This document shows positions 2,506 through 56,726 of a stretch of DNA of 64,000 bases, piece after piece. A program made the position numbers and the translations under genes. Origin of the DNA: Dehalococcoidia bacterium (GTDB taxonomy: Bacteria > Chloroflexota > Dehalococcoidia > Plut-88900); assembly GCA_965197585.1 (NCBI GenBank), contig OZ240215.1, forward strand, positions 1,312,001 to 1,376,000. The letters run 5' to 3'. How positions within the stretch are numbered: position 1 is the stretch's first letter; every line of letters starts with the position of its first letter. A model generated the notes under the pieces. It ran no database searches, was not told the DNA's origin, and saw only the letters and a program-made list of their open reading frames with translations.

Positions 2506-3762
2506 ATGAGCACCGAGGCCACAATTATCAGCATCTCGCTTATTGCGTTCTTTATGGTGCTGTCAGCCTTCTTCTCCAGCTCCGAGACAGCTTTCATGTC
2601 TCTCCAGCGGGTGAGGATACTCCACCTTGCCAACATAGGCCGGGCCGGAGCCAAGAAGATGCTGGACAGAATGGACCAGCCCGAGCGGACCCTATCCACC
2701 GTCCTCCTGGGTAACAATCTAGTCAACATCGCCGCCGCGGCGGTCGGTACAGCCCTCGCGGTGGCGTGGCTTGGGGAAAACCTGGGGATCGCAGTGGCTA
2801 CTTTGGGCATAGCGTTCCTCCTTCTCGTCTTCAGCGAAGTCATTCCCAAGACCTTTGCAACCCGCCACGCCGAGTGGCTTGCCTTCCGTTACCTCAGACC
2901 CTTCGCCTTGGTGGAAGTCTTACTCCTGCCCGTCTCCGTCTTCCTGGAGCTCATCGGACGCGGCATTATCAGCCTGAGTGGGGGGCGGATTGGCGCTAGA
3001 AACCTGGTCAGCGCCGAGGTCCTCCGATCCGTCATATCCGTAGGTCGGGAGCACGGCGCCGTCGACCGCGAAGAGGCCAAGATGCTCCAGAACGTTCTTG
3101 TTTTCAGGGACCGCCTCGTCAAAGAGGTGATGACCCCGCGCACCGAAATGGTGTGGCTCGACGAGGACACCACCCTTACCACTTTCCTGGACGAATACGA
3201 CACCGCCCCCCTCTCCCGATTCCCGGTCTACAAAGAGGCCTACGACAACGTAGTCGGTATCCTGCACACCCGGGACGTCATCAGAGCCCTGCACGGCGGC
3301 CAGGTCCAGTCCGACAGCATGCTCATCGAGCTAGTCCGCCCGATCCAGTTCGTACCAGAGACCAAGCGCCTCGGCGACCTCTTCTTCGAAATGCGCTCCT
3401 CCGGCCAACAGATGTACCTCGTCGTAGACGAATACGGGGGGGTGTCGGGGCTCGTAACCAACCAGCAGCTTGTCGCCGCCATCATGGGTCGAGTCGCGGA
3501 CGACGAGGCCGGTCGGGACGAAGTCGAAGAGCTCGAGTCCGGTGCCTTCCAGGTTGACGGTGGAATGCCTATCCAGGAAGCCAACGAGACCCTCGGCTTG
3601 AATATCCCCGACGGTGACTACGAGACCATTGCCGGCTTCGCCCTCGATATCCTCGCCCACATCCCCACCGAGGGGGAAGCCTTCCGCTTCCAGGGACGCC
3701 GCATCACTGTCTCCGAAATGAAGGGTGTTAAAATCGAAAGGTTACTGGTCTCCAAACGCTAG
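2506..3762 (+). CDS. Hemolysin/CNNM family (DUF21-CBS-CorC) membrane protein
   Basis: SAFFSSSETAF, TVLLGNNLVN, EVIPK, VKEVMTPR, SRFPV, VVDEYGGVSGLVT, YETIAGF; AGGAGG RBS before ATG 2506. Confidence 0.92.
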   Translation: MSTEATIISISLIAFFMVLSAFFSSSETAFMSLQRVRILHLANIGRAGAKKMLDRMDQPERTLSTVLLGNNLVNIAAAAVGTALAVAWLGENLGIAVATLGIAFLLLVFSEVIPKTFATRHAEWLAFRYLRPFALVEVLLLPVSVFLELIGRGIISLSGGRIGARNLVSAEVLRSVISVGREHGAVDREEAKMLQNVLVFRDRLVKEVMTPRTEMVWLDEDTTLTTFLDEYDTAPLSRFPVYKEAYDNVVGILHTRDVIRALHGGQVQSDSMLIELVRPIQFVPETKRLGDLFFEMRSSGQQMYLVVDEYGGVSGLVTNQQLVAAIMGRVADDEAGRDEVEELESGAFQVDGGMPIQEANETLGLNIPDGDYETIAGFALDILAHIPTEGEAFRFQGRRITVSEMKGVKIERLLVSKR

Positions 3763-45815: not shown

Positions 45816-46000
45816 TTTCCCTCACTGCTGTCGTTGGTCAAGTCTGATGTCGGATGATTATCTTATACCACGCTCTCCATCGTAGGGCCCTTGCTCCCAA
45901 TGCCAGTACAACGGGCATCCCATTTGATGATATGATATCAAGTAACCAATTCTCATTCCGCTTCACCTGCTTCTCCCCCAAGGATTTCCACAAGCCAACT

Positions 46001-47743
46001 ATGCTCATCCCGCTTCAAAGGCTCTTGTCCCGTGACCGGTTCATAAACGGCAATACGGACAAAAGACTACTTCTCTTCAAGATCCGTCAGCAGGGCATTT
46101 ACCCCGCCCTGGCCCTTCCCGCTCTGCTTCTAATGGTCCTCTTCTTCATCATCCCACTGGTCAGAATGGTGGACGTCAGCTTCGGTGGGAATGACGGCTT
46201 CTCCCTCGCCTACTACGACAAGGCCCTGACTAACCCCATCTACCAGAGGATGTTCCGCACCACCTTCGAACTGGCTGCTTTTACCACCGTCGGTTGCATC
46301 GCTCTCGGATACCCCATCGCCTACTTTCTTGCCACCCGCACGGGCCGTTGGCACGGCGCAGTTCTCCTAATAGCCATAATTCCATTCATTACTAACTCCA
46401 TTGCGAGCGTCTACTCCTGGCGCGTGATATTCGGTAGACGCGGTCCCGTAAACGAGTTCTTGCAGCTCATCGGAGTAATAGATGACCCACTTGAAATACT
46501 CTGGAGCCGTTTCGCAGTAGAAGTCGGCATGATCCAGATTCTCCTTCCCTTCATGATTCTCCCACTCTACGCCGTCATGCGAAGTATCCCCAAGAGCCTT
46601 ACAGCCGTCGCCGAAAGTATGGGCGCCCATCCGATAAAGAGCTTCCGGCATATATTCCTTCCCCTGAGCCTTCCAGGAATCTGGGCCGGGTCCATTCTTG
46701 TGTTTATACTCAGCGCAGGCAGCGCCATCGCCCCGAGCATCCTGGGCGGCATCCGGGACCAGGGCATAGCTTCCTATCTGGCCGGAACCAGCGGATTCAG
46801 CGCTGCTCTTGCCGTGATCCTCCTTACCGCTATCCTCATCCTGTACATGATTTTCGCCCGGCTGGTCGGGTTCGGCTCCCTATATGGTGCCGGTGAGGCC
46901 CTCCTCCGCTCCTCTCCCATCGAGATCTCCTACCGCGCACCGCGGCGCATTTCTTTGAATGTCATGGTCGGGGCAGTTTGCATTTTTCTGGTCCTGCCCA
47001 GCCTCATAGTCATTCCCCTCGCCTTCAATGAGTCTTCTTTCGTCATTTTCCCTCCAAAGTCCTATAGTTTGGTCTGGATCAAAACCTTCTTCACTACCAG
47101 CGTAATCAGCCCCGTCAACTGGGTGGAGTCTACCTTCACCAGCCTCCAACTTGCCTTTATCACAGTCTTGGTCTCCGTGCCCGCCGGAGGCCTGGTCGCC
47201 TACGGAATTGCGCGAGGCTCCTTCCCGGGCCGCGGCTTTCTTGGTTCCTTTATAATCCTGCCCCTCATAATCCCCTCGACCCTCACTGCCATCGCTCTTT
47301 TCTACTTCTACTCCTTCCACATGCGGATACTTGTCGGCACCGTCATTGGCATAGCCATGCCCCACGCCGTTCTGGCAATACCCTATGTCGTCATCATCCT
47401 CACCGCCACCCTCCGAGGCGTCGACGAGGTCCACGAGCAGGCTGCCATGAGCCTCGGCGCTAATCGATTCACCGCTTTCCGGAGGGTTATCCTGCCCCAG
47501 ATAGTGCCCGGCATTACCGTTGCCACCTTTTTCGCGTTCATGGTCTCCTTCTACGAGGTGCCAATAGCCGTGTTCCTCAAGGACCCGTTCCTCAGGACCC
47601 TTCCCATGAATTTGTGGAACGGCGTAACCGTGGAATTTGCCCCTATGATGGCCGCGGTCTCTTTCATCCTCTTGATTTTCGCTGCTTTCATGCTTATAGG
47701 CTTGGTCTTTTTTAGAAGTCGCCTCTTTAAGCAGCGGACCTAA
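46001..47743 (+). CDS. Fused double ABC permease (PotB+PotC-like)
   Basis: Two BPD_transp_1 modules with EAA-like loops (VAESMGAHP, EQAAMSLGANR). Confidence 0.88.
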   Translation: MLIPLQRLLSRDRFINGNTDKRLLLFKIRQQGIYPALALPALLLMVLFFIIPLVRMVDVSFGGNDGFSLAYYDKALTNPIYQRMFRTTFELAAFTTVGCIALGYPIAYFLATRTGRWHGAVLLIAIIPFITNSIASVYSWRVIFGRRGPVNEFLQLIGVIDDPLEILWSRFAVEVGMIQILLPFMILPLYAVMRSIPKSLTAVAESMGAHPIKSFRHIFLPLSLPGIWAGSILVFILSAGSAIAPSILGGIRDQGIASYLAGTSGFSAALAVILLTAILILYMIFARLVGFGSLYGAGEALLRSSPIEISYRAPRRISLNVMVGAVCIFLVLPSLIVIPLAFNESSFVIFPPKSYSLVWIKTFFTTSVISPVNWVESTFTSLQLAFITVLVSVPAGGLVAYGIARGSFPGRGFLGSFIILPLIIPSTLTAIALFYFYSFHMRILVGTVIGIAMPHAVLAIPYVVIILTATLRGVDEVHEQAAMSLGANRFTAFRRVILPQIVPGITVATFFAFMVSFYEVPIAVFLKDPFLRTLPMNLWNGVTVEFAPMMAAVSFILLIFAAFMLIGLVFFRSRLFKQRT

Positions 47744-47777: not shown

Positions 47778-48194
47778 ATGGACTACAACGATGCCCTCGC
47801 CTTTCTATCAGCCAACTTCGACGCCGTCGTCAACACCTTCAGAAAGTCCGGCGCCATCCAGTCCAGTGTGGTAAAGGCCGGGGCCTATCAGAACGGTGTC
47901 GTCTTCGTTGCCATCGGCAACTCGGCAAAGCTGAAAAATCTTGCCCGAGACCCCCGATGCACCGTCACCATCGTTAGTCCCCACTGGAACAGCTGGTGCG
48001 CCGTAGAAGGGAAGGTGGTGATTCGGGACTGGGACAACACAGACCACGAATCCCTTCGCATCGAACTACGTGAGACGTTCGTAGCCTGCGGGGGCGACCA
48101 CGATGACTGGGATGAGTACGACCGTGTGATGCGTGAAGACCGCCGAGCCATCGTAGTGGTCAAACCCGACCACATCTACGGACAGGGAGTTTAG
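47778..48194 (+). CDS. PPOX-class (likely F420-dependent) oxidoreductase
   Basis: T.RKSGAIQSS.V, AKLKNLARDPRCT, HDDWDEYDRVMREDRR. Confidence 0.85.
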   Translation: MDYNDALAFLSANFDAVVNTFRKSGAIQSSVVKAGAYQNGVVFVAIGNSAKLKNLARDPRCTVTIVSPHWNSWCAVEGKVVIRDWDNTDHESLRIELRETFVACGGDHDDWDEYDRVMREDRRAIVVVKPDHIYGQGV

Positions 48195-48214
48195 GGAGGC
48201 AGGGCCAGTTTCGC

Positions 48215-49114
48215 CTAACCGAGTAGGTTGAGGGCCTTCGGCACTACCGATATTTCCGCAGGGGTCTCAGCCACCCGCTCTCCGTCTGCCCAGATGGGCA
48301 TCGGCGCCTCGGTCTCTACCTTTAGCCTCTTTACTCGGTGCATGGAAACCGCCGGGTTCTTTAGATGGCCGCCGCTGAAGACCCGGGGTAACATCATCAC
48401 CACCTCCCGCCTCGAAACCGATTTCACCAGGCAGACATCCAACATCCCGTCTTCCGGCTCGGCTCCCGGCGCTATCTTCATGTTCCCGCCGTACTGAGGT
48501 GTATTGGCAGTCGCCGTCAGGAATATTCTGCCCGAGTATTCGAAGTCTTCTCCGATTAGATGTACCTTTGCATCCTTGTATCGAAGCAGCTGGGCAAAGA
48601 TCGCATAAACGTAAGACGGCGTTCCCGAAAGTATGCGAGGCACGTGCCCGTCCGCAACGTACTGGCTCACCGCACTGTCGAATCCTAGAGTAGCTACCGT
48701 CGCGAAGTACCTGTGCCCGACTGAGCCCAAGTCTATCTGTCTCGAATCGCCGGCTAAAATCAGATCAGCTACGCCCTCGGGGGTATTGGGGAGATCCATC
48801 GCCGCGGCAAAATCGTTGCACCTGCCGGCAGGTATGATCCCAACGATAACTTCCGAGGCCAAAGAGTGATCCATCACTCCGTTGATCACTTCGTGCAGAG
48901 TCCCGTCTCCTCCGCAGGCCAGCACCCCAACACTTCCCTCCTCTACCGCCTTTCGCGCGAGTCTTTCTGCATCCCCAGAACGAGACGTGTACAGGACCTG
49001 GTTAGACACCTCAGCCGACGTCAGCAGCATCCCAGTCTGTGCTGCAAGGGCCCGACTCCTCCCTTTGCCCGACACAGGGTTAGCCACAATGGTCCATTTG
49101 GCCCCATTCCCCAT
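48215..49114 (-). CDS. Diacylglycerol/lipid kinase (YegS/DgkB family)
   Basis: NPVSGKG, GGDGTLHEVING, PAGRCNDFA, YGGNMKIAP, DGMLDV, DGE. Confidence 0.93.
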   Translation of the reverse strand: MGNGAKWTIVANPVSGKGRSRALAAQTGMLLTSAEVSNQVLYTSRSGDAERLARKAVEEGSVGVLACGGDGTLHEVINGVMDHSLASEVIVGIIPAGRCNDFAAAMDLPNTPEGVADLILAGDSRQIDLGSVGHRYFATVATLGFDSAVSQYVADGHVPRILSGTPSYVYAIFAQLLRYKDAKVHLIGEDFEYSGRIFLTATANTPQYGGNMKIAPGAEPEDGMLDVCLVKSVSRREVVMMLPRVFSGGHLKNPAVSMHRVKRLKVETEAPMPIWADGERVAETPAEISVVPKALNLLG

Positions 49115-49117
49115 GCT

Positions 49118-50704
49118 TTACGTCACGTCGCAAAGGAAGATTGGCGGATAATGGTACAGTGATACCTCGGGAGACGGTCCTACCGTGTCCTTTGCCATCT
49201 CCAATGCCGTCGCTACGTCCGGCGCGGTCTCGTAGCCCAGCCGCTCGGCCACCGACTTGTCTTTCGCCCCCGCCACGATAACCCGGCCCAGGTACTCCTG
49301 CCCATAGCACGCCCAGTACCACATGTATAAGGGATGGACACCGTGATACGCGTACGATTCCCGGTACAGCTTCCGATACCGCTCGTCCGAGGCATAAGAA
49401 GCTTCAAACCTCTTCTCAATCTCAGCCGCGTCCCGGGTCTCGGGCAGAATGTTGTTGTAAAAATCGATATACGAGGGGTGGTGCAATGAGTTGAATCGCT
49501 CCTCCAGCGGGTGCGAAAACACCAGTACCCCGCCCCGCCTCACCAATGGCTTCCCCCGGTACATGTTAAAGCTGTAGCCGAGCGCGAGCGTGTGGATTAG
49601 CAGCGGATTCAGCAGCGAGTTCACGTTGTACGGGCAGAGATAAGGAAGGCCCATTACCACCACGTCGGCCTGGCCCTCCACCGGTACTGCCTGCTGCTTG
49701 AATAGACTCGTCAATATCTTCTCATGTACCAAGTCCGTGTCCCCCGCCGCGACATCCAGCAGTCCATATGGCGAGCGCAGGTTCTGGAATATCTGCCATC
49801 TTAAATAGAACGGCAAGATGTCCAGTGCCCTACGGTTGACCCCGAATGTCACCTTGTCTATGGCATTCCAGTCTGACTCCTGCTTTTGCAGGTGTGCCAA
49901 TATCGACGGAAACGTGTTCGAGGTAAGGGAAGTCTCTATCTTGAAGACGTTCAGATTCTTGGATACCACCTCTCCCATCCCATTTACCGAGTTATGCAAC
50001 GCGGACCGTGTCGGGTCCATGTATGACTCGCACCGCATCAGTGTATGCACATTGTGGTTGTGCCTGATGGTCTTGTAACTCACCAGTCCCGTGCTGATCG
50101 ACTTATGCCCACCATCCATCGAAGAGAGGTTGATGTTCACGTAAATCAACAGATCAGACTCCGCCACCCTATTCGATGTTTCCACCTCCTCACCCTTCTC
50201 AGTCATCCCGAGCACCACCAGGTCCTCCTCGTCCTCCGCATCAAAGTTGTACAACCTGTCAGGGTGGAATTCGTTGAATACCCTCTTGCCCACAGCCCGC
50301 TTTAGCTCGGAAGGAGTCATACGCCGATGTAGCCCCAGCGCGGCTACAAGGTGTACATCCTCGACACCATTCTCTCTCAACGTTCGAAGCACCGCTTCGA
50401 TGATCCTCTGGCGCAAGTCGGGCCTCTTCATCTGCGGCAGAGGCAGAGATATATCATCAAAAGCGATGGTTACCTTCATACCGGGCCGAAGCTGGTGGGA
50501 CAACGGGTCCTGACCCAAGGGGTTCTCTAATGCCTCAGCTATCGCCCCGTCCGCGTCTTCAATAGAGGGAAGGGCAGGCGGAGGATAGATTATGCGGCTC
50601 CCCACCGGCAGCTCCTCGAACCGGAATGCCTCCCCATGATGCATCAGGAATCGCTGTCCGGGCTTCTCAACCCGTTTAATCAACTTGCTCTTATCTATTT
50701 CCAA
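49118..50704 (-). CDS. Lactate racemase (LarA/DUF2088) domain protein, elb-cluster type
   Basis: ALENPLG..PL, KVTIAFDDISLP, ALGLHRRMT, DGGHKS, RRGGVL; TTG start after AAGGGA. Confidence 0.8.
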   Translation of the reverse strand: MEIDKSKLIKRVEKPGQRFLMHHGEAFRFEELPVGSRIIYPPPALPSIEDADGAIAEALENPLGQDPLSHQLRPGMKVTIAFDDISLPLPQMKRPDLRQRIIEAVLRTLRENGVEDVHLVAALGLHRRMTPSELKRAVGKRVFNEFHPDRLYNFDAEDEEDLVVLGMTEKGEEVETSNRVAESDLLIYVNINLSSMDGGHKSISTGLVSYKTIRHNHNVHTLMRCESYMDPTRSALHNSVNGMGEVVSKNLNVFKIETSLTSNTFPSILAHLQKQESDWNAIDKVTFGVNRRALDILPFYLRWQIFQNLRSPYGLLDVAAGDTDLVHEKILTSLFKQQAVPVEGQADVVVMGLPYLCPYNVNSLLNPLLIHTLALGYSFNMYRGKPLVRRGGVLVFSHPLEERFNSLHHPSYIDFYNNILPETRDAAEIEKRFEASYASDERYRKLYRESYAYHGVHPLYMWYWACYGQEYLGRVIVAGAKDKSVAERLGYETAPDVATALEMAKDTVGPSPEVSLYHYPPIFLCDVT

Positions 50705-50756
50705 TACAGTTCCCTTATATCTCAGTGGCCTTCGCCGTAAGTGTAGCAAGCCCCGG

Positions 50757-51998
50757 TTAGTCGGGAAAGGTGAACACCATCTTTCCGCCCCCCAGCCTCC
50801 CCGCCCGACCCGCTTTCACAATTGCTTCCCGGTACCGCTTAATGGGAAACCTGTGACTCACTAGCCTCGACACCCCGGAACGGAAGTTTCCGTCCTTCAT
50901 GAGGTGTTTGGCCAGTTCGAACGTCTTCATCTCTTTGTCCACGGTCCGCTCTATCCCGTAAGCGTAAGAGCCTGTAAATCGCACCTCCTGGTGCCACAGG
51001 GGCGTCAGGTCGGCCTTCGCATCAGACGGCATTCCCAGGGCCACGAGCGTCCCGTTCTCCATCGTCCACCTCATTGCATCTTCCAGCGCTGCCGACGTGC
51101 CAACACACTCGAACACTACGGGAAACCCGCCCGAAACAGCCGGCTTCCCCCGAATGACCGACAGCACCTTCGCCCCGACCTCATCCGACAGCTGCGCATA
51201 TCCCCCCACACCAGCATCACATACCACGTTAGCTCCCAAGTCCATGGCCTTACGCTTCTGTGATTCGTATTTGGCCACAGCCACTATCCGGCATTCCGGT
51301 TGTAATGCTCTCAGAGCTGCAATGGTCAGCAATCCAACTACACCACACCCGACCACGAGCACGGGCCCCAACCCTTCTATCCCGGCCCTAAGCACTCCGT
51401 GAATAGCACACGATAGCGGCTCCAACAGCACTGTTGCTTCGTCCGAAAAGTGATCCGGCACTCGGTGCAGCTGCGCTGTGTGCGCCACGAACCGTTCTCC
51501 CCAGCCCCCCGGCAAGCTTCGGCAATACCCGATCTGCAGCCCCGCCGAAAATTCCCCTTCCGTGGTCCGTACGCAGTTAGCATACCGTCCCGCTGCACAT
51601 TGAGGGCACAAGTCGGGCATCCCCCTGACCGTGCAGCCTAAAGCCGGTTCGATTGCCACCCTTTCTCCTACCTGGAACTCTTTAACCCCTTCCCCCACCT
51701 CAATTATCTCCGCCACAACCTCGTGGCCCGGGACAAGCGGAAATGACGTAAAACCAGATAGATACAGGCTCCCCCTGCACATCACCACTACCAGGTCAGA
51801 CCCACAGATCCCACTCATAATCGTGCGCACCTTGACCCAATCTGGGCCCGGCAGCGCTGGCTCCTGCACGTCCTTCATCCGCAAAACAGCAGTCGGGCCC
51901 AAAGACAACCGTGGGAACCGTTTGGAAAGCGCCCTGGTCACCAGCCACCGTGGAATACTCTTGGAAACAACTAATGCCTTCACAGAAATCCGTCTCAT
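50757..51998 (-). CDS. Zinc-binding alcohol dehydrogenase (MDR family)
   Basis: SGICGSD, PGHEVV, CPQC..G....C, EPLSCAIH, VVGCGVVG. Confidence 0.92.
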   Translation of the reverse strand: MRRISVKALVVSKSIPRWLVTRALSKRFPRLSLGPTAVLRMKDVQEPALPGPDWVKVRTIMSGICGSDLVVVMCRGSLYLSGFTSFPLVPGHEVVAEIIEVGEGVKEFQVGERVAIEPALGCTVRGMPDLCPQCAAGRYANCVRTTEGEFSAGLQIGYCRSLPGGWGERFVAHTAQLHRVPDHFSDEATVLLEPLSCAIHGVLRAGIEGLGPVLVVGCGVVGLLTIAALRALQPECRIVAVAKYESQKRKAMDLGANVVCDAGVGGYAQLSDEVGAKVLSVIRGKPAVSGGFPVVFECVGTSAALEDAMRWTMENGTLVALGMPSDAKADLTPLWHQEVRFTGSYAYGIERTVDKEMKTFELAKHLMKDGNFRSGVSRLVSHRFPIKRYREAIVKAGRAGRLGGGKMVFTFPD

Positions 51999-52060
51999 CC
52001 CCTCTCCCTCGATGGGAGAGGACTAGGGCCGTATGCTCGCTGAGGAGTGTGAGGGTATCT

Positions 52061-52750
52061 CTATCCTTTTAGGGTCCACCATCGCACCGGCCAATCCCTG
52101 GCACGGGCCAGCTTCTCCAATCTACGTTCCGGGTTTACCGCTATCGGATGCCCCACCATCTCCAGGAGCGGCAGGTCCGAAATGTCGTCCGCGTAGGCGT
52201 AGGAATCCGATAATGCCACCCCACATTTCTCCGCCCAGTTCTTTGCAGCCTCCGCTTTCCCGGCTCCACTCAGAGGTCCAAACTCCAATTCCCCCGTGAA
52301 TCGTTCCCCGTCCACCTTACCCCGGGACGCCATTACCTCGTCGACCCCCAGCAAGTCCCCCAGAGGCCTGACCATCTCCATTAGCCCGCCAGTAAGGAGC
52401 ACCACCTTGTGACCATCAGTCCTGTGTCGTTCCACCTCATCCCTCGCCTCCCTGAAGAGACGCCCGCCCCAGTAATCTGCGCCTCTCCTCTTAGCCCAGC
52501 CTACCAAGTCCCCCACCGCCGACCCGCGGTAGTTCTTAAAGAATCCCCTGATGAATTTCACCCTGTCAGTCCAGTCCGTCAGGGCGTAAAGGGGAATTCT
52601 GGGAGCAAAAGCCGCTAACCAGAGGCCTCGGCTCAATAAACCCTTACCTTCCAGAGCATAGTCCAGGTAAACGTCCAGCAGGTTTGAAGAGGCGATGGTC
52701 CTGTCCACATCAAAGAACGCTGCAACTCTGGCATTAGGCCTTCCCATCAA
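52061..52750 (-). CDS. HAD-IB family hydrolase
   Basis: AFFDVDRT, LLTG, GKA, YAYADDISDLPLLEMVGHPIAVNP. Confidence 0.92.
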   Translation of the reverse strand: MMGRPNARVAAFFDVDRTIASSNLLDVYLDYALEGKGLLSRGLWLAAFAPRIPLYALTDWTDRVKFIRGFFKNYRGSAVGDLVGWAKRRGADYWGGRLFREARDEVERHRTDGHKVVLLTGGLMEMVRPLGDLLGVDEVMASRGKVDGERFTGELEFGPLSGAGKAEAAKNWAEKCGVALSDSYAYADDISDLPLLEMVGHPIAVNPERRLEKLARARDWPVRWWTLKG

Positions 52751-55040
52751 GCGCCTCGACTGCCGCCTGAACTTCCCCGGTCACCTCGCGGCTCAACTCA
52801 CTCAAACCCTTGGCGTCAGCTCCATCGGACCTGCCCGCGAAGCAGATAGGCTCCCCAAAACGTATGGAGACTGGATGCCGCTTCACTCTTACCGTACCTT
52901 TAGGCATCGCTTTATGTGAGTCCTTGATAAACGCGGGTACGACGGGGGCCTCCGACATGAGGGCAAGGAACCCTATGCCGTTCTTGAAGGGCTGCATCCT
53001 TCCCGGACGACCCCTGCTCCCTTCCGGGTAGAAAACCAGTGCGTGCCCCTTTTCCAGCACCGCCAACGCCAACCCGAGCTCCTCTCGGGACGTCCCCTTC
53101 CTATCGAAAGGGATCGCCGTGAACAGTCCCCTCACCATTCGAGACATGAACCCGTTTTCGAAGAAGTAGTCCTTTGCCGCCACGGGGTGGACTTTCTCAC
53201 CTCTCCGCCCGAGAGCGTGAAATATCACCGGCGTGTCCATGTGGCTATTGTGGTTCGAAGCAATGATATAAGGCCCGGAGTCTGGAATATTCTCAAGTCC
53301 CTCACACCGGAAACCCGTCCACCACCTGATCGCCGATCTCATAAGAAAGAACAGAGCTTGCCCCCAACACCTGATCCACAGTGGGACCTTGAACCACCGC
53401 TCGGCCTCTACTCCGAATCCGGCATCGGAAACGCGGGCGCCGTTCCCCTTGGGCTCAGGGTCCATGCCGAGCAGGTACTTCTTCACACCCGGAATATGCA
53501 CATCCTGAAGGTAGGACTCCCAGTCCAGCTTACCGATATCGAAGTCAAAATTCTCCTTATCACTCTCGTGAAGCGCACCCATCACACTGCGGGTGTTGTC
53601 GGTGAGAAACTTGCAGTCTGCCTCGGCATACGGTCCGTACAACCTGCCGTACTGGTACAGCCTTTCTAGTGACACCATCTTCAATTTCAATCTGTTATGA
53701 AAGCGTCGGGTCCAAGGTGTGAAGGAAAGAGGCGCGGTAGCTGTGATGGCGGCTCGTAGGGGAAGCATGTAGCGCAGGCGGATGTGGCGAAGGAATTTGG
53801 GAGTAGTAGGAAAGGTAGGTTTGGTGAGCTTCCTTGCTTTCCCCCCCTCGTCCCCCGACACCGGGAAAGGGGCCCTCTGGAAATGCGCATCAACCTGGTC
53901 GGCGAACCCATCTAGCGTTATCGGATTCTCCATCCCTGAGGCAATCTGGTACACCTTTGGAGAGTCATTTACCGAGGCCTGCGCGACGATGGCCAATATC
54001 GCGTTAGCCACCATGTCAACGGGGATGATGTCCAGAATTCCGTCTCGTTTGCCCGGGAAATCGATCATGCGGCCCCGTCCGTAAGCCACTATCAGCGGGT
54101 CGAGCATCCGAAAACCGTTCAGCCAGCCCGGTACAGGCGCTTTCCAGGCCCCTTCTATTATGGCCGGCCTGATAATCGCCCCTTTCATCCCTCCAATGCT
54201 CCGCACAAACATCTGCTCGCCCATCGCTTTGGAGAAGGTGTACACGTCCTGCCAGCCGCGCCTGTGAGCCCATTCCATGCCAATCTTGCTCAGCTGCTTG
54301 TCCAGCCGCTCAGACTCGGCACGGCTAACCTGCTCCTTTGCTCCCCTCACCGACCCCGCCTTAGCCAGAATCGCCTCGATCTCCTTTTCCACATCGTAGT
54401 CTGTCTGGGGAATGCCGTTGATGTGCCCGACAGTACGGTTCGGGTCAGGCAGCTCCTCCGTAACAGGCCCTTTGCGAGTAGCATTCACATAGCAGGTAGA
54501 AACTTGGGCAAAAAACGGGTCCTTACATCCCTTTGCGAACTCAACCATTCGGCCAGGGCCCAATGTGTTCAATCTCACTGCCGTATCCAAAGGCGCATCG
54601 AAGGAGACGACCGCGGCGCAATGAATGATTATGTCGACTTCGCTTTGTAAACGTTCGTAAATTGCCGGGTCCAGGCCCAGGCCATCCATCGCCACGTCCC
54701 CTGAGACGGCATGGACCTTGCTATCGAAGAGGCTGTCGAAAGCATCTCCCATCCTGTCTTTCAACGGCTCGAAGATCTGGGATTCGAAGACTTCCTGCTT
54801 GAGTCTCTCGTCTATGGATATAGCTGTGGCCCCGGCCCGTGTCCTGGGTCTGACAAGAACGTAGACAGCCGCGATATCAGAAAGAAGGCTGAGCATTCTC
54901 TCCAGGAGCACCTTGCCCAGTAGGCCGGTGCCCCCTGTGAGGAGCACAGTCTTTCCTCTGTAGAAATCTCGAAGTGGTTGCAAGGAAGCCTGCTGGATAT
55001 CGTCTAGGTAGGGTGCAGGATTAGGTAAGGTCACGTACAT
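52734..55040 (-). CDS. Fatty acyl-CoA reductase (male-sterility SDR + FAR_C) fused to a PlsC-type acyltransferase
   Basis: LTGGTGLLGK, HCAAVVSFD, VSTCYVN, YTFSKAMGE, RPAIIE, DIIPVDMVAN; C-terminal NHNSHMD, FYPEGSR, PVVPA. Confidence 0.92.
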   Translation of the reverse strand: MYVTLPNPAPYLDDIQQASLQPLRDFYRGKTVLLTGGTGLLGKVLLERMLSLLSDIAAVYVLVRPRTRAGATAISIDERLKQEVFESQIFEPLKDRMGDAFDSLFDSKVHAVSGDVAMDGLGLDPAIYERLQSEVDIIIHCAAVVSFDAPLDTAVRLNTLGPGRMVEFAKGCKDPFFAQVSTCYVNATRKGPVTEELPDPNRTVGHINGIPQTDYDVEKEIEAILAKAGSVRGAKEQVSRAESERLDKQLSKIGMEWAHRRGWQDVYTFSKAMGEQMFVRSIGGMKGAIIRPAIIEGAWKAPVPGWLNGFRMLDPLIVAYGRGRMIDFPGKRDGILDIIPVDMVANAILAIVAQASVNDSPKVYQIASGMENPITLDGFADQVDAHFQRAPFPVSGDEGGKARKLTKPTFPTTPKFLRHIRLRYMLPLRAAITATAPLSFTPWTRRFHNRLKLKMVSLERLYQYGRLYGPYAEADCKFLTDNTRSVMGALHESDKENFDFDIGKLDWESYLQDVHIPGVKKYLLGMDPEPKGNGARVSDAGFGVEAERWFKVPLWIRCWGQALFFLMRSAIRWWTGFRCEGLENIPDSGPYIIASNHNSHMDTPVIFHALGRRGEKVHPVAAKDYFFENGFMSRMVRGLFTAIPFDRKGTSREELGLALAVLEKGHALVFYPEGSRGRPGRMQPFKNGIGFLALMSEAPVVPAFIKDSHKAMPKGTVRVKRHPVSIRFGEPICFAGRSDGADAKGLSELSREVTGEVQAAVEALDGKA

Positions 55041-55154
55041 TGACAGGGCTCCGCCAGACCCGACGCATTATAATTTCCACACGCCCACTCGTCCATTGTC
55101 ACCCATTCCCCCGAGGTTCAGAAAAGTAGCCGTTATCCCGAGAATCCCGAGCCC

Positions 55155-55739
55155 TTAACCACGCCTTGCTTGAGCATCAGCGGCCAAGTGTCGGGCCACC
55201 TCCATCAGTCCTGTTACCCGAATAACGTTCTCCCTGTATTGATATCCCCGATTCCTTGGCCAGTCCCTCAGAAACACCCTCGACAGCCCCTTCCGGGACA
55301 GAAGATCGGCAACCCGGCCATCGTCATCTACGAACTCCTCAATCCCGAGTTCCGAGCACATATGCCACTTGAAGTCGGGAGACCGCAACCCCAGGTTGTT
55401 CGAATGCACTTCGCGGAACAGTTCGAGAAATCCATGCGCTTTCAACCATCCCTCTATTAACCCCGCTCCAAGCCCGTTCCGGCTGGTAACCAATACCGGG
55501 GTTCGGAACTCGCTGATCGATTCAATTCCCTCCCGAGCATCCTCCAGTGGCCTGCGCCCATAGTACTTGAACTTCAGCAACCACCTCATTGCCACAAGCC
55601 CGATGCCCGAAGGAGTTTCTCTTTTCTTCGAGTTGAGTGGACGGCTCTCGTACGGCCCCGGCGCTATCGGTATGTTTAGTCCGAAGGGAGGTCGGCAAAT
55701 TACACCGTCCATATCTATTCCTATCAGGGGTTTATCCAT
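55155..55739 (-). CDS. HAD-superfamily phosphatase-like protein
   Basis: IGIDMDGVI, LVTSR, FK, FVDDD. Confidence 0.75.
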   Translation of the reverse strand: MDKPLIGIDMDGVICRPPFGLNIPIAPGPYESRPLNSKKRETPSGIGLVAMRWLLKFKYYGRRPLEDAREGIESISEFRTPVLVTSRNGLGAGLIEGWLKAHGFLELFREVHSNNLGLRSPDFKWHMCSELGIEEFVDDDGRVADLLSRKGLSRVFLRDWPRNRGYQYRENVIRVTGLMEVARHLAADAQARRG

Positions 55740-55850
55740 ACGCCAGCCTTTTCGGATACCATGTGTTCTACGGTCATTTTACCTTGAATGCCACTTTAGA
55801 AAGCTGCCCGTGTGTTAGTATCGGATCGTAGCTGCAAGGGAGGAAGAGAC

Positions 55851-56726
55851 ATGAAACAGCTTGGCCCCGAGCAAGTTTGCCACAGGTTCTCCGCCGAAGA
55901 CCCGCCCGGCCTTCGCGTCGAGTCCGGGGAGGTCTTCTTGGTAAGGACGACTGACCGGTTCCGGAACGTCTCCAAAACCGACCCCGACTTCGCAAAGTCA
56001 GACGTTGTCAGGTCTATGAACGGACCCATTTACGTTAACGGGGTCCGCGCGGGCGACACCCTCAAGGTTGACTTCCTTTCCATGTCCCCCGCCGAGCCCT
56101 GCGCCTACGTCCTTGCCCTTCCGGGTCACGGGGCACTGGGGAGCCGGATTCCCAACTTCCTGATGGAGACCGTAGACGTCACCGGTCTAGACGCGGTGTT
56201 CCCGAATGGCACGTCGGTCCCCTTAAGGCCCATGCTCGGCTTGATCGGCGTGGCCCCCGAGCATGGGGAAGCAGGACTAAGTGCAACCGGGCCTTTCGGA
56301 GGCCTGCTCAGCATCACAGACGTCACGGCAGGCTCAACCCTCTACCTGCCCGTGTTCCACGACGGCGCATTCTTGTCTATGGGAGATTCTCATCTCGCTA
56401 TGGGAGAAGGTGAGGCCACGAGTTCCGCCGTCGAAGGTTCGATGAGTATTACCCTCCGAGCCTCGGCTTCTCAAGAGGTAGAAGTTTCAGGCCCCATGGT
56501 AGTGACTCCCGAGCACGTGATTAGCTTCGGAAGAGGGGTCACCATGGAAGAGGCTGCTCACGCCGCCACCTTGGCCATGGCAGACCTCCTTATGTCGCGG
56601 CTGAACATATCCGCCCCTGACGCCGCAATGCTCATCGGCTGCGCAGCAGACCTGCGGACCGCTCTTGCCCTCCGTTCCCCCTACAGCATGAAGATGCTCA
56701 TGCCCCTCTCCACCCTACCCCTCTAA
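55851..56726 (+). CDS. Acetamidase/formamidase family protein
   Basis: NGPIYVNGVRAGDTLKV, RPMLGLIGVAP, LYLPVFHDGA..SMGDSH..MGEGE. Confidence 0.88.
   Translation: MKQLGPEQVCHRFSAEDPPGLRVESGEVFLVRTTDRFRNVSKTDPDFAKSDVVRSMNGPIYVNGVRAGDTLKVDFLSMSPAEPCAYVLALPGHGALGSRIPNFLMETVDVTGLDAVFPNGTSVPLRPMLGLIGVAPEHGEAGLSATGPFGGLLSITDVTAGSTLYLPVFHDGAFLSMGDSHLAMGEGEATSSAVEGSMSITLRASASQEVEVSGPMVVTPEHVISFGRGVTMEEAAHAATLAMADLLMSRLNISAPDAAMLIGCAADLRTALALRSPYSMKMLMPLSTLPL

Follow-up and report, generated by a model that had tools for sequence, protein, structure and literature searches.

A six-gene operon around a LarA homolog in a Dehalococcoidia genome

The window analyzed here, 64,000 nucleotides from a Dehalococcoidia bacterium (GenBank assembly GCA_965197585.1, contig OZ240215.1, positions 1,312,001 to 1,376,000), contains a run of six co-directional minus-strand open reading frames (ORFs) spanning 48215–55739. 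These code, in order of transcription, for a small HAD-fold protein, a fusion of a fatty acyl reductase (FAR) with an acyltransferase (AT), a HAD-IB phosphatase, a zinc-dependent alcohol-dehydrogenase-like protein (Zn-ADH), a homolog of the lactate racemase LarA (LarAH), and a lipid kinase (Table 1). The conserved operon is real, and it is a compact Chloroflexota variant, distinguished by the FAR-AT fusion and the kinase, of a known and biochemically unsolved pathway, namely that of the elb type, after the elb operon of Myxococcus xanthus.

Gene coordinates were taken from the list of ORFs with their translations, and domains were assigned with Pfam and NCBIfam profiles. In agreement with a first-pass annotation made from the sequence alone, which had listed six co-directional genes with overlaps or short gaps, the FAR-AT and HAD-IB genes overlap by 17 nt (52734–52750) and only 3 nt (49115–49117) separate the LarAH gene from that of the kinase. 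The HAD-IB and ADH genes are 62 nt apart; the ADH-LarAH gap is 7 nt with the TTG start of LarAH, or about 49 nt if the start of its 528-aa relatives is the correct one; and 114 nt separate the 194-aa gene from FAR-AT. Both flanking genes are on the plus strand, one convergent (47778–48194) and one divergent (55812–56726) to the run.

Table 1. Features of the operon, listed in the direction of transcription (positions are those of the window)
Feature	Position	Strand	Basis and remarks
HAD-fold protein, 194 aa, NT5C/FCP1-like	55155..55739	-	Motifs and AF2 model
Promoter-like site TGGACG-17-TATAAT	55067..55095	-	10/12 match to consensus only; in the 114-nt gap upstream of FAR-AT
FAR-AT fusion, 768 aa, ElbD-like without adenylation/carrier module	52734..55040	-	Pfam/NCBIfam; alignment to L022
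Fatty acyl reductase part of FAR-AT	53469..54941	-	NAD_binding_4, residues 34-348; Sterile, residues 459-524
PlsC/AGPAT-type acyltransferase domain of FAR-AT	52926..53312	-	Residues 577-705; HX4D motif (HNSHMD), EGSR
HAD-IB phosphatase, ElbB-type, 229 aa	52061..52750	-	TIGR01490; DVDRT and YADD motifs
REP-like hairpin repeated genome-wide, one copy	51997..52030	-	In the HAD-IB/ADH gap
Zn-dependent medium-chain dehydrogenase, 413 aa, polyol/threonine-dehydrogenase type	50757..51998	-	ADH_N and ADH_zinc_N
LarA homolog LarAH14/15/16 (ElbC-type), 543 aa; predicted NPN enzyme with a single catalytic His	49118..50749	-	NF052592
YegS/Rv2252/BmrU-family soluble lipid kinase, 299 aa	48215..49114	-	DAGK_cat and YegS_C; TIGR00147

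The operon core recurs in other phyla

Contigs from one genome per species were searched with an alignment of 13 LarAH sequences, which matched at least 600 stretches, 592 of them confirmed. The best 80 of the 592 confirmed loci were retained together with flanks of at most 10 kb per side, a sample that leans towards close relatives of the query, and the window proteins were compared with them by tblastn, counting partners within 8 kb of LarAH. Among these 80, FAR accompanies LarAH in 70, AT in 73, HAD-IB in 75, ADH in 75, and the kinase in 8. The well-flanked subset (61 loci whose flanks reach 6 kb or more upstream and 2.5 kb or more downstream) has FAR in 58, AT in 57, HAD-IB in 59, and ADH in 57, with all four present in 54. 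As for the seven exceptions, L018, L021, and L028 lack FAR and AT; L061, L062, and L087 lack ADH; and the AT of L019 sits beyond 8 kb on a divergent ElbD-type gene. Because 54 of 61 well-flanked loci hold FAR, AT, HAD-IB, and ADH within 8 kb, the same genes recur beside LarAH in other phyla, and the FAR domain, HAD-IB, and kinase have one tblastn match each at E<1e-5 in the organism's own 3.43-Mb genome, the five-gene core is not a chance neighborhood. The first-pass annotation had staked its reading on co-localization being conserved in other genomes, and this is what the 54 loci display.

By sequence identity, LarAH is the best-conserved partner of the cluster: its identity to the window protein is 49–93% in the best 80 loci and 46–85% in 14 further Chloroflexota loci, as against 28–54% for the other partners outside the genus.

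An ElbD-like fusion without the ligase and carrier module

Pfam finds NAD_binding_4 (215 bits), Sterile, and Acyltransferase in the FAR-AT protein, and neither an AMP-binding nor a PP-binding domain within its 768 residues. The FAR part carries the motifs TGGTGLLGK and YTFSK, and a hydrophobic stretch lies at about residues 549–577. In BLASTP comparisons, FAR-AT aligns with both ends of the ElbD-type protein of the acidobacterial locus L022 (residues 6–533, 39% identity, 380 bits; residues 1261–1447, 33%, 119 bits), and the approximately 727 ligase/carrier residues of the latter are replaced by a linker of about 55 residues that includes the hydrophobic stretch. Judged by this alignment, the window protein is an ElbD minus its adenylation and carrier module, bearing out the earlier observation that the fusion lacks these domains. 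By Pfam and NCBIfam, the acyltransferase is of the PlsC/AGPAT type (GNPAT-like or AGPAT-like) and not a wax synthase.

A word-indexed protein search returned about 75 clusters with the FAR-AT architecture among the matches listed, and all the organism-named ones come from Chloroflexi or Dehalococcoidia. Lower among the listed matches are FAR-HAD fusions from Frankia and Acidimicrobiales. Other fusions include a 1246-aa FAR-AMP-binding (ligase)-HAD protein (P0202) and a 1328-aa FAR-HAD-LarN protein (P0233), the latter a single Logan sequence that could be an assembly artefact. The existence of such fusions (FAR-HAD in actinobacteria, FAR-ligase-HAD in P0202, and FAR-HAD-LarN in the one sequence of P0233) links the parts.

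The link to the elb operon

The elb operon of M. xanthus is given as running from MXAN_1531 (elbA) to MXAN_1527 (elbE) (PMC13012113), and elbC is therefore MXAN_1529. In the published account (PMC9131029), ElbD is a FAR-ligase-carrier-acyltransferase protein required for the alkyl and vinyl ether lipids of M. xanthus, ElbA and ElbE belong to the NAD-dependent epimerases/dehydratases, ElbB counts as a HAD-like phosphohydrolase, and ElbC is described as a protein without known function; an aldehyde was detected in M. xanthus, and fatty alcohol was not. The supplements of a survey of the LarA superfamily tabulate MXAN_1529 as a member of LarAH group 15 (Desguin et al. 2020, PMC7583248). By family membership, the window HAD-IB and LarAH thus correspond to ElbB and ElbC, and the statement in the first-pass annotation that a HAD and a DUF2088-type protein are encoded at the elb locus proved accurate. 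With FAR and AT on one protein that aligns to both ends of the L022 protein, a HAD-IB, and an ElbC-type LarAH, its reading of the locus as an elb-type cluster also stands.

The same survey records the neighbors of these groups (PMC7583248): COG0204 (PlsC), COG0560 (HAD-IB), and COG1063 (Zn-ADH), each at 88%, with the thioester reductase COG3320 at 50%, for group 14 (8 members, including Frankia); two COG0451 and COG0560 at 100% and COG1022 at 75% for group 15 (12 members); and COG0204 and COG0560 at 100% for group 16 (4 members). Both group 14 and group 15 bear the label ‘Unknown function’ there, and the word ‘lipid’ is absent from the main text (PMC7583248). The LarAH neighborhood has thus been in print since 2020, as a table only, and a full-text literature search found no paper combining ‘lactate racemase’ and ‘ether lipid’.

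The papers on sponge symbionts (PMC9426513, bioRxiv 10.64898/2026.06.23.733905) detect elb-like biosynthetic gene clusters by a nonribosomal-peptide-synthetase (NRPS)-like core and an adenylation (A)-domain tree, place them in Poribacteria and Acidobacteriota, with diacylglycerol kinases nearby in some clades, and tie Chloroflexota only to Ger homologs. In a Black Sea study, BLAST homologs of ElbD are reported from 37 of 558 Chloroflexota metagenome-assembled genomes (MAGs). A paper on the ether lipids of Rubrobacterales reportedly mentions a putative alkylglycerol-phosphate operon.

A LarA homolog with a single catalytic histidine

LarAH passes the NCBIfam model NF052592 (‘NPN-dependent hydroxyacid isomerase, LarAH14/15/16 family’; 796 bits, cut-off 740), NPN being the nickel-pincer nucleotide, and carries a Lar_N domain (PF09861, 138 bits). 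In a phmmer search of the PDB sequences the single-histidine LarA-like proteins 9q2u and 9q3j rank first, and the alignment pairs D99, H141, and K216 of LarAH with Asp73, His115, and Lys195 of 9q2u, which are respectively ribose-binding, catalytic, and NPN-tethering (Gatreddi et al. 2025). L102 aligns with Lys76 of 9q2u at the carboxylate-binding Arg75 position, and the four-residue loop in which 9q2u has Asn185 in place of the second catalytic His (His174 of Lactiplantibacillus plantarum LarA) is deleted. H232 sits 16 residues past K216, aligned to the region of the Ni-binding His of 9q2u, and in L. plantarum LarA the Ni-binding His has the same spacing. In an alignment of 92 family members (L126 excluded and fragments shorter than 480 aa dropped), D98, D99, H141, R142, N205, K216, and H232 are invariant in 92/92, and position 102 is Leu or Ile in all 92. 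These alignments indicate that LarAH retains the Lys that tethers NPN, the His that binds Ni, and a single catalytic His.

An AF2 model of LarAH built from 13 sequences (pLDDT 83.5, pTM 0.85) agrees with this assignment in its Foldseek matches: the best is 9q3k (E=8.8e-32, TM 0.84 on the target, 22% identity), followed by LarA of Isosphaera and Lactiplantibacillus (TM 0.69–0.77; 5huq, TM 0.73). By both the NCBIfam family and the structure matches, LarAH does not group with the true lactate racemases; grouping with them is what the earlier annotation had considered fatal to its proposal.

LarAH groups 14 and 15 are without a His174 equivalent, and the equivalent of Lys298 is Asn in both (PMC7583248). 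A carboxylate substrate is therefore unlikely for such proteins, given this Asn together with the Leu/Ile at the Arg75 position, and, as LarAH has neither the loop bearing a second catalytic His nor the Arg that binds the carboxylate, so is epimerization of a backbone. Hydride transfer to an adjacent site has been suggested as possible for such enzymes (Desguin et al. 2020, PMC7583248). NPN is described as able to shuttle a hydride between different substrates, an intermolecular precedent on another scaffold.

The genome itself contains larB, larC, and larE, each over its cut-off, as the first-pass annotation had suggested verifying. LarB is present in 18/18 Chloroflexota carriers of LarAH, and in 11 of these 18 LarAH is the sole Lar_N protein. 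As a test of NPN use, LarB co-occurrence is non-discriminating (18/18 carriers against 11/12 non-carriers) and was set aside. Two further LarA homologs are found in the genome, at L133:7527-8975 (C1:726526-727974) and C1:1500605-1501303. The former, of 482 aa, scores 213 and 208 bits with the LarAH14/15/16 model, under the cut-off, and adjoins an Amidohydro_2 gene, with no lipid genes nearby; the latter is of ordinary length (434 aa) and has the best Lar_N match of the genome (195 bits).

The phosphatase, dehydrogenase, kinase, and small HAD

The HAD-IB protein passes TIGR01490 (125 bits, cut-off 98.3). The ADH displays the motifs CGSD, GHE, and GCGVVG and a four-Cys structural-zinc segment, and its top NCBIfam matches are the threonine (Tdh), inosose (IolM), and idonate dehydrogenases, all far under their cut-offs. 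The kinase passes TIGR00147 (164 bits, cut-off 118.65). For the 194-aa protein, neither Pfam nor NCBIfam gives a family match even at E=10, yet it carries DxDGV, TSR, and DDD motifs, and its AF2 model (pLDDT 83.5) has 141 PDB matches at E<=0.001, of which those listed are all HAD-fold, mostly natural HAD hydrolases with three proteins engineered on such a fold; its atlas features lie at 0.96–0.97 to nucleotidase/FCP1-like clusters. By tblastn it has homologs in L014, L119, and L121, and none in L120 or the other sampled loci. As it is kept just within the genome's own family and a promoter-like site lies downstream of its gene, it is probably peripheral to the operon core. Thus, the ‘second HAD’ of the first-pass annotation is a HAD by fold, and its place in the pathway is doubtful. 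The Zn-ADH and lipid kinase, which that annotation took for additions special to this locus, are not so, since both are also found with ElbD-type genes in Acidobacteriota, Planctomycetota, and others.

Two versions of the cluster and their distribution

Ten loci were annotated with Pfam, and three others with high GC (L058, L083, and L087) were assessed by tblastn only. ElbD-type proteins of 1416–1498 aa with FAR, AMP-binding, and acyltransferase domains are found in Acidobacteriota (L022), Planctomycetota (L053), Armatimonadota (L027), Thermoanaerobaculia (L062), and Poribacteria (L019); four of the five have a carrier PP-binding domain, which is not reported for L053 at 1e-5. The ElbD-type gene is directly followed by HAD-IB, Zn-ADH, and LarAH in L022, L053, and L027; in L062, tblastn places HAD-IB and LarAH downstream of it with ADH not found, and in L019 it is divergent from ADH-LarAH, with HAD-IB not found. 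The five core genes of the window match the ElbD-type clusters of Planctomycetota, Acidobacteriota, and Armatimonadota gene for gene, with the order kept. In the acidobacterial cluster, an IS481-type transposase gene (rve, HTH) stands between Zn-ADH and LarAH (L022:8882-9829).

In the Chloroflexota loci L015 and L016, by contrast with these ElbD-type proteins, the FAR-AT fusions of 846 and 796 aa are without ligase and carrier. Sorted by class, the best 80 loci comprise 60 with split FAR and AT, 4 with the fusion (L014–L017, all Chloroflexota), 4 with the ElbD form plus L019, and 12 not classed. The split form has the order FAR|HAD|ADH|LarAH|AT, with FAR and AT encoded separately on either side of LarAH, and is mostly found in Actinomycetota. 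Carriers of the cluster that are in culture include Nocardioides soli DSM 105498, Kribbella orskensis, and Aquihabitans sp. G128. In SAR202 locus L015, a flippase-like gene (LPG_synthase_TM, TIGR00374; L015:11846-12883) is situated 262 nt downstream of LarAH, on the side where the window has the kinase. A DAO-family neighbor in the same locus was considered as a glycerol-3-phosphate oxidase and ruled out, being an L-2-hydroxyglutarate oxidase (541 bits).

In an even sample of Chloroflexota, NF052592 was detected in 16/401 genomes (15 over the cut-off), 12 of them from one family, f41. All 11 other genomes of the organism's own family have it, and none of 29 other families of the same class, sampled with one genome each. 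Flanks were taken for 14 Chloroflexota carriers, three from the own family (L119–L121) and eleven from the families f41, f27, f45, and f62 (L122–L132). The three repeat the window order FAR-AT|HAD|ADH|LarAH|kinase, while 9 of the eleven have the full actinobacterial split order with no kinase; of the remaining two, L123 (f45) has the split order without ADH, and only HAD, LarAH, and AT were seen in L126 (f62).

A FastTree analysis of 94 LarAH sequences, with a 486-aa paralog from the same genome as the root, recovers two clades; its supports are local only, several long branches were flagged, and L125, a translated fragment under 440 aa, is outside the tree. Clade 1 (19 rows, support 82) holds all ElbD-type rows, and the 8 FAR-AT rows form a single group (97*) nested in it beside a Gemmataceae sequence, amounting to one change on the tree. 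Clade 2 (74 rows, support 94) unites Actinomycetota, other Chloroflexota, and a Dormiibacterota genome. The kinase adjoins LarAH in 12/19 rows of clade 1 (ElbD-type/FAR-AT) and in 0/74 of clade 2 (actinobacterial-type). Among the sampled loci, the fused FAR-AT is limited to Chloroflexota and forms one clade. On this tree Chloroflexota hold two unrelated versions of the cluster, namely the split one in f41, f27, and f45 and the fused one in the own family and in SAR202/Dehalococcoidia MAGs, and this patchy distribution suggests separate acquisitions. Most simply, the fused form would have arisen from an ElbD-type gene by loss of the ligase and carrier, a direction that depends on the root.

A proposed pathway and its alternatives

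The above observations indicate that the window locus probably has an elb-type ether-lipid function. More tentatively, we propose that LarAH could be the step that enables the ether bond; the assignments of enzymes to steps, like the ether product itself, are inferences. FAR-AT, having no ligase or carrier of its own, would take acyl-CoA or acyl-ACP directly, like FAR1 and GNPAT; its FAR part would convert the acyl group to a fatty aldehyde or alcohol, and its AT part would acylate a glycerol-phosphate or dihydroxyacetone phosphate (DHAP) backbone. LarAH might perform an NPN-based hidden redox at glycerol C2, with removal of a hydride giving a DHAP-type ketone that activates C1 for the C-O-alkyl bond; it is proposed for this oxidation because it is the sole part without an assigned analog in the AGPS route, is the best conserved, and is without the requirements of a racemase. 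In one possible route (a), glycerol-3-phosphate (G3P) and a fatty aldehyde would form a hemiacetal or oxocarbenium, and after loss of water the borrowed hydride would be delivered to C1', yielding 1-alkyl-DHAP; this would account both for the detection of an aldehyde in Myxococcus and for a separate ketoreductase being universally required. In the other (b), an AGPS-like swap of the acyl group for a fatty alcohol would take place on a transiently or permanently keto backbone, which fits the alcohol-forming character of the FAR part.

Given that its nearest families oxidize secondary alcohols of polyols, the Zn-ADH might reduce 1-alkyl-DHAP (or alkyl-dihydroxyacetone) to the alkylglycerol level, the role of a short-chain dehydrogenase/reductase (SDR) in the peroxisomal pathway and perhaps of ElbE in Myxococcus. 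HAD-IB may remove and the kinase restore the sn-3 phosphate, routing material between alkylglycerol and alkyl-G3P. The ElbC-type LarAH would then be a candidate, and a speculative one, for the missing ether-bond-enabling nickel-pincer enzyme of an aerobic, AGPS-independent bacterial pathway, leaving 1-alkyl-DHAP for the adjacent dehydrogenase. For the explanation as a whole, i.e., a compact elb-type operon together with a LarAH-based mechanism, we estimate a probability of about one half.

Several points weigh against this explanation. The M. xanthus link goes through NCBIfam membership and published descriptions with their supplement and not through direct protein alignment, as neither the best 80 loci nor those fetched later include one from Myxococcota. 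In the M. xanthus account (PMC9131029), the effect of the elbB insertion is ascribed to polarity, the genetic support is for elbD (and elbE) only, and elbC was never tested alone. The ‘Sterile’ C-terminal domain of the FAR is typical of alcohol-forming reductases, so that the sequence does not favor the aldehyde route. Pontiella isolates with ElbD homologs showed no ether lipids, as noted in the Black Sea study. When given NPN, Frankia LarAH14 did not act on any of the seven 2-hydroxy acids assayed (PMC7583248), which agrees with a different substrate and equally shows no activity at all. LarB occurs in 11/12 Chloroflexota non-carriers too, two of them without a Lar_N match. The scheme is at its weakest in the role given to HAD-IB, as a phosphatase is unneeded in simple ether-phospholipid schemes and its universal presence is not really explained.

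Ether lipids might instead be made with LarAH in an accessory role, the bond arising in FAR-AT or via an unlinked enzyme and LarAH carrying out a redox-neutral isomerization of a backbone or headgroup intermediate. This is the most serious of the alternatives, if still rather improbable: the M. xanthus genetics support only ElbD and ElbE (PMC9131029), and the module tolerates variation (3/61 loci without ADH, 3/61 without FAR, and 4/61 without an AT within 8 kb), as against the superior conservation of LarAH over its partners, the absence of an AGPS gene from the annotated clusters, and the fact that LarAH is the sole component without an analog in the FAR/GNPAT/AGPS/reductase scheme. A non-ether product, viz., fatty-alcohol or wax-type esters or long-chain 1,2-diol-based lipids like those of Thermomicrobia, made by FAR from a 2-hydroxyacyl intermediate on which LarAH acts, appears unlikely. 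FAR plus acyltransferase is the logic of wax synthesis too, the LarA enzymes characterized so far act on 2-hydroxy acids, and Pontiella provides ElbD homologs without detectable ether lipids; set against these are the Leu/Ile and Asn at the two carboxylate-related positions, which make a carboxylate substrate unlikely, an acyltransferase of the PlsC/AGPAT type instead of a wax synthase, and the genetic tie of the homologous myxobacterial operon to ether lipids (PMC9131029). Nothing in the analysis points to the diols that the first-pass annotation had allowed for.

That annotation had also offered an inversion of the glycerol-backbone stereocenter by LarAH (G3P-type to glycerol-1-phosphate-type and back). 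Racemization and epimerization are the chemistry known for the LarA family; the accepted mechanism, however, needs two bases on opposite faces, and the loop with the second His (Asn in group 17) is deleted in LarAH and in groups 14 and 15, which leaves this option quite improbable. We give slightly less credence still to LarAH being an NPN-independent or non-catalytic subunit, e.g., a scaffold for FAR, HAD, and AT. The Frankia group 16 copies have lost the tethering Lys and were judged non-NPN (PMC7583248), and the presence of LarB is not specific to carriers; against this, D99, H141, K216, and H232 are invariant in 92/92 members, the whole LarA fold is kept, and larB, larC, and larE are present.

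Implications

The formation of the alkyl ether bond in aerobic bacteria without AGPS is an unsolved question, on which two gaps from separate literatures converge, namely an ElbC without a function and the LarAH groups 14 and 15 labelled ‘Unknown function’. The minimal five-gene version without a dedicated ligase and carrier should be easier to express or reconstitute than the ElbD-type clusters. Screens based on the ElbD adenylation domain probably overlook the Chloroflexota and Actinomycetota carriers, which matters to the question of where the bacterial alkylglycerols found in sponges, in sediments, and in the deep ocean come from. If the pathway is as proposed, Dehalococcoidia/SAR202-type Chloroflexota and many Actinomycetota would be unrecognized sources of environmental non-isoprenoid alkylglycerols, and their ether-lipid synthesis would depend on nickel; and if the nickel enzyme is catalytic, NPN chemistry would extend from small hydroxy acids to membrane-lipid synthesis.

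Other features of the region

A scan of the region for promoters and terminators gave 2 promoter-like sites, below the 3.9 expected in shuffles, and the site listed in Table 1 is no more than a hint. Metatranscriptome contigs from two libraries of one study (90–97% alike) cover parts of LarAH, ADH, HAD-IB, and FAR-AT, with one crossing the HAD-IB/FAR-AT junction, a presence that is not proof of transcription; none lies over 47801–49004, i.e., most of the kinase gene, a gap that carries no conclusion.

The 23-nt hairpin in the HAD-IB/ADH gap has an 8-bp stem, a 5-nt loop, and a trailing G run, and the window holds another copy at about 21940. The 3' arm of the copy at 51997–52030 overlaps the ribosome-binding region of the ADH gene. 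The 3.43-Mb genome contains 23 exact copies and 61 with at most two mismatches, of which just 8 are directly followed by a start codon. Two bins with the hairpin have a summed contig depth of ~2,700–3,700 in two RNA libraries, against 2–14 in the flanks, with many loose ends at the hairpin borders. The element looks like an intergenic repeat of the repetitive extragenic palindromic (REP) kind that is abundant in RNA libraries. Elsewhere in the window, a 629-aa ORF (45854–47743) joins PotB-like and PotC-like halves of an ATP-binding cassette permease (two BPD_transp_1 stretches).

Comparison with known systems

At the level of the single enzyme, the window LarAH shares with LarA (5HUQ) and its single-His homologs (9Q3K, 9Q3J; Gatreddi et al. 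2025) the two-domain fold (TM 0.69–0.84 on the target) as well as the tethering Lys, Ni-binding His, ribose-binding Asp, and first catalytic His. Unlike them, it has neither the second catalytic residue, its loop being deleted, nor an Arg or Lys at the carboxylate/phosphate position, and it differs from LarA in being ~100 residues longer and in having a lipid-metabolism context instead of a carbohydrate/acid one.

The AGPS-type systems, i.e., the peroxisomal pathway (FAR1, GNPAT, AGPS, and acyl/alkyl-DHAP reductase), M. xanthus MXAN_1676-1674, and Tetrahymena FARAT, resemble the window cluster in the fusion of an N-terminal FAR with a C-terminal AT, in a ketoreductase, and in the overall logic of combining a fatty alcohol or aldehyde with an acylated triose phosphate. 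The window cluster differs in having LarAH and HAD-IB and no AGPS flavoenzyme: Pfam and NCBIfam find no FAD-oxidase-type (AGPS) gene in the operon or its flanks, and none is present in any of the ten Pfam-annotated clusters.

With elbABCDE of M. xanthus, the window operon shares FAR and an AGPAT-type AT on one protein, a HAD phosphohydrolase (ElbB), a LarAH (ElbC), and a separate NAD(P) oxidoreductase. It departs from elbABCDE in that its fusion is without the acyl-CoA-synthetase and carrier domains, a medium-chain Zn-ADH takes the place of the SDR-type ElbA and ElbE (Pfam and NCBIfam identify no SDR-type protein in the operon), a YegS-type lipid kinase is added, and the gene order is different. 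The actinobacterial group 14 operon (Frankia Franean1_4168; PMC7583248) has the same five functions, with LarAH by PlsC, HAD-IB, Zn-ADH, and thioester reductase, but its FAR forms a fusion with HAD-IB instead of AT, the AT is downstream of LarAH, there is no lipid kinase, and its LarAH belongs to the separate clade that includes the other Chloroflexota families.

The ElbD-type clusters of Acidobacteriota, Planctomycetota, Armatimonadota, and Poribacteria keep the ~727-residue ligase/carrier module that the window form is without; detection centered on this module, by an NRPS-like rule or an A-domain tree, would probably miss the window-type form. They have in common with the latter the order [ElbD or FAR-AT]-HAD-IB-Zn-ADH-LarAH(-lipid kinase), and, among the best 80 loci, they supply the nearest relatives of its LarAH, FAR, and AT outside Chloroflexota.

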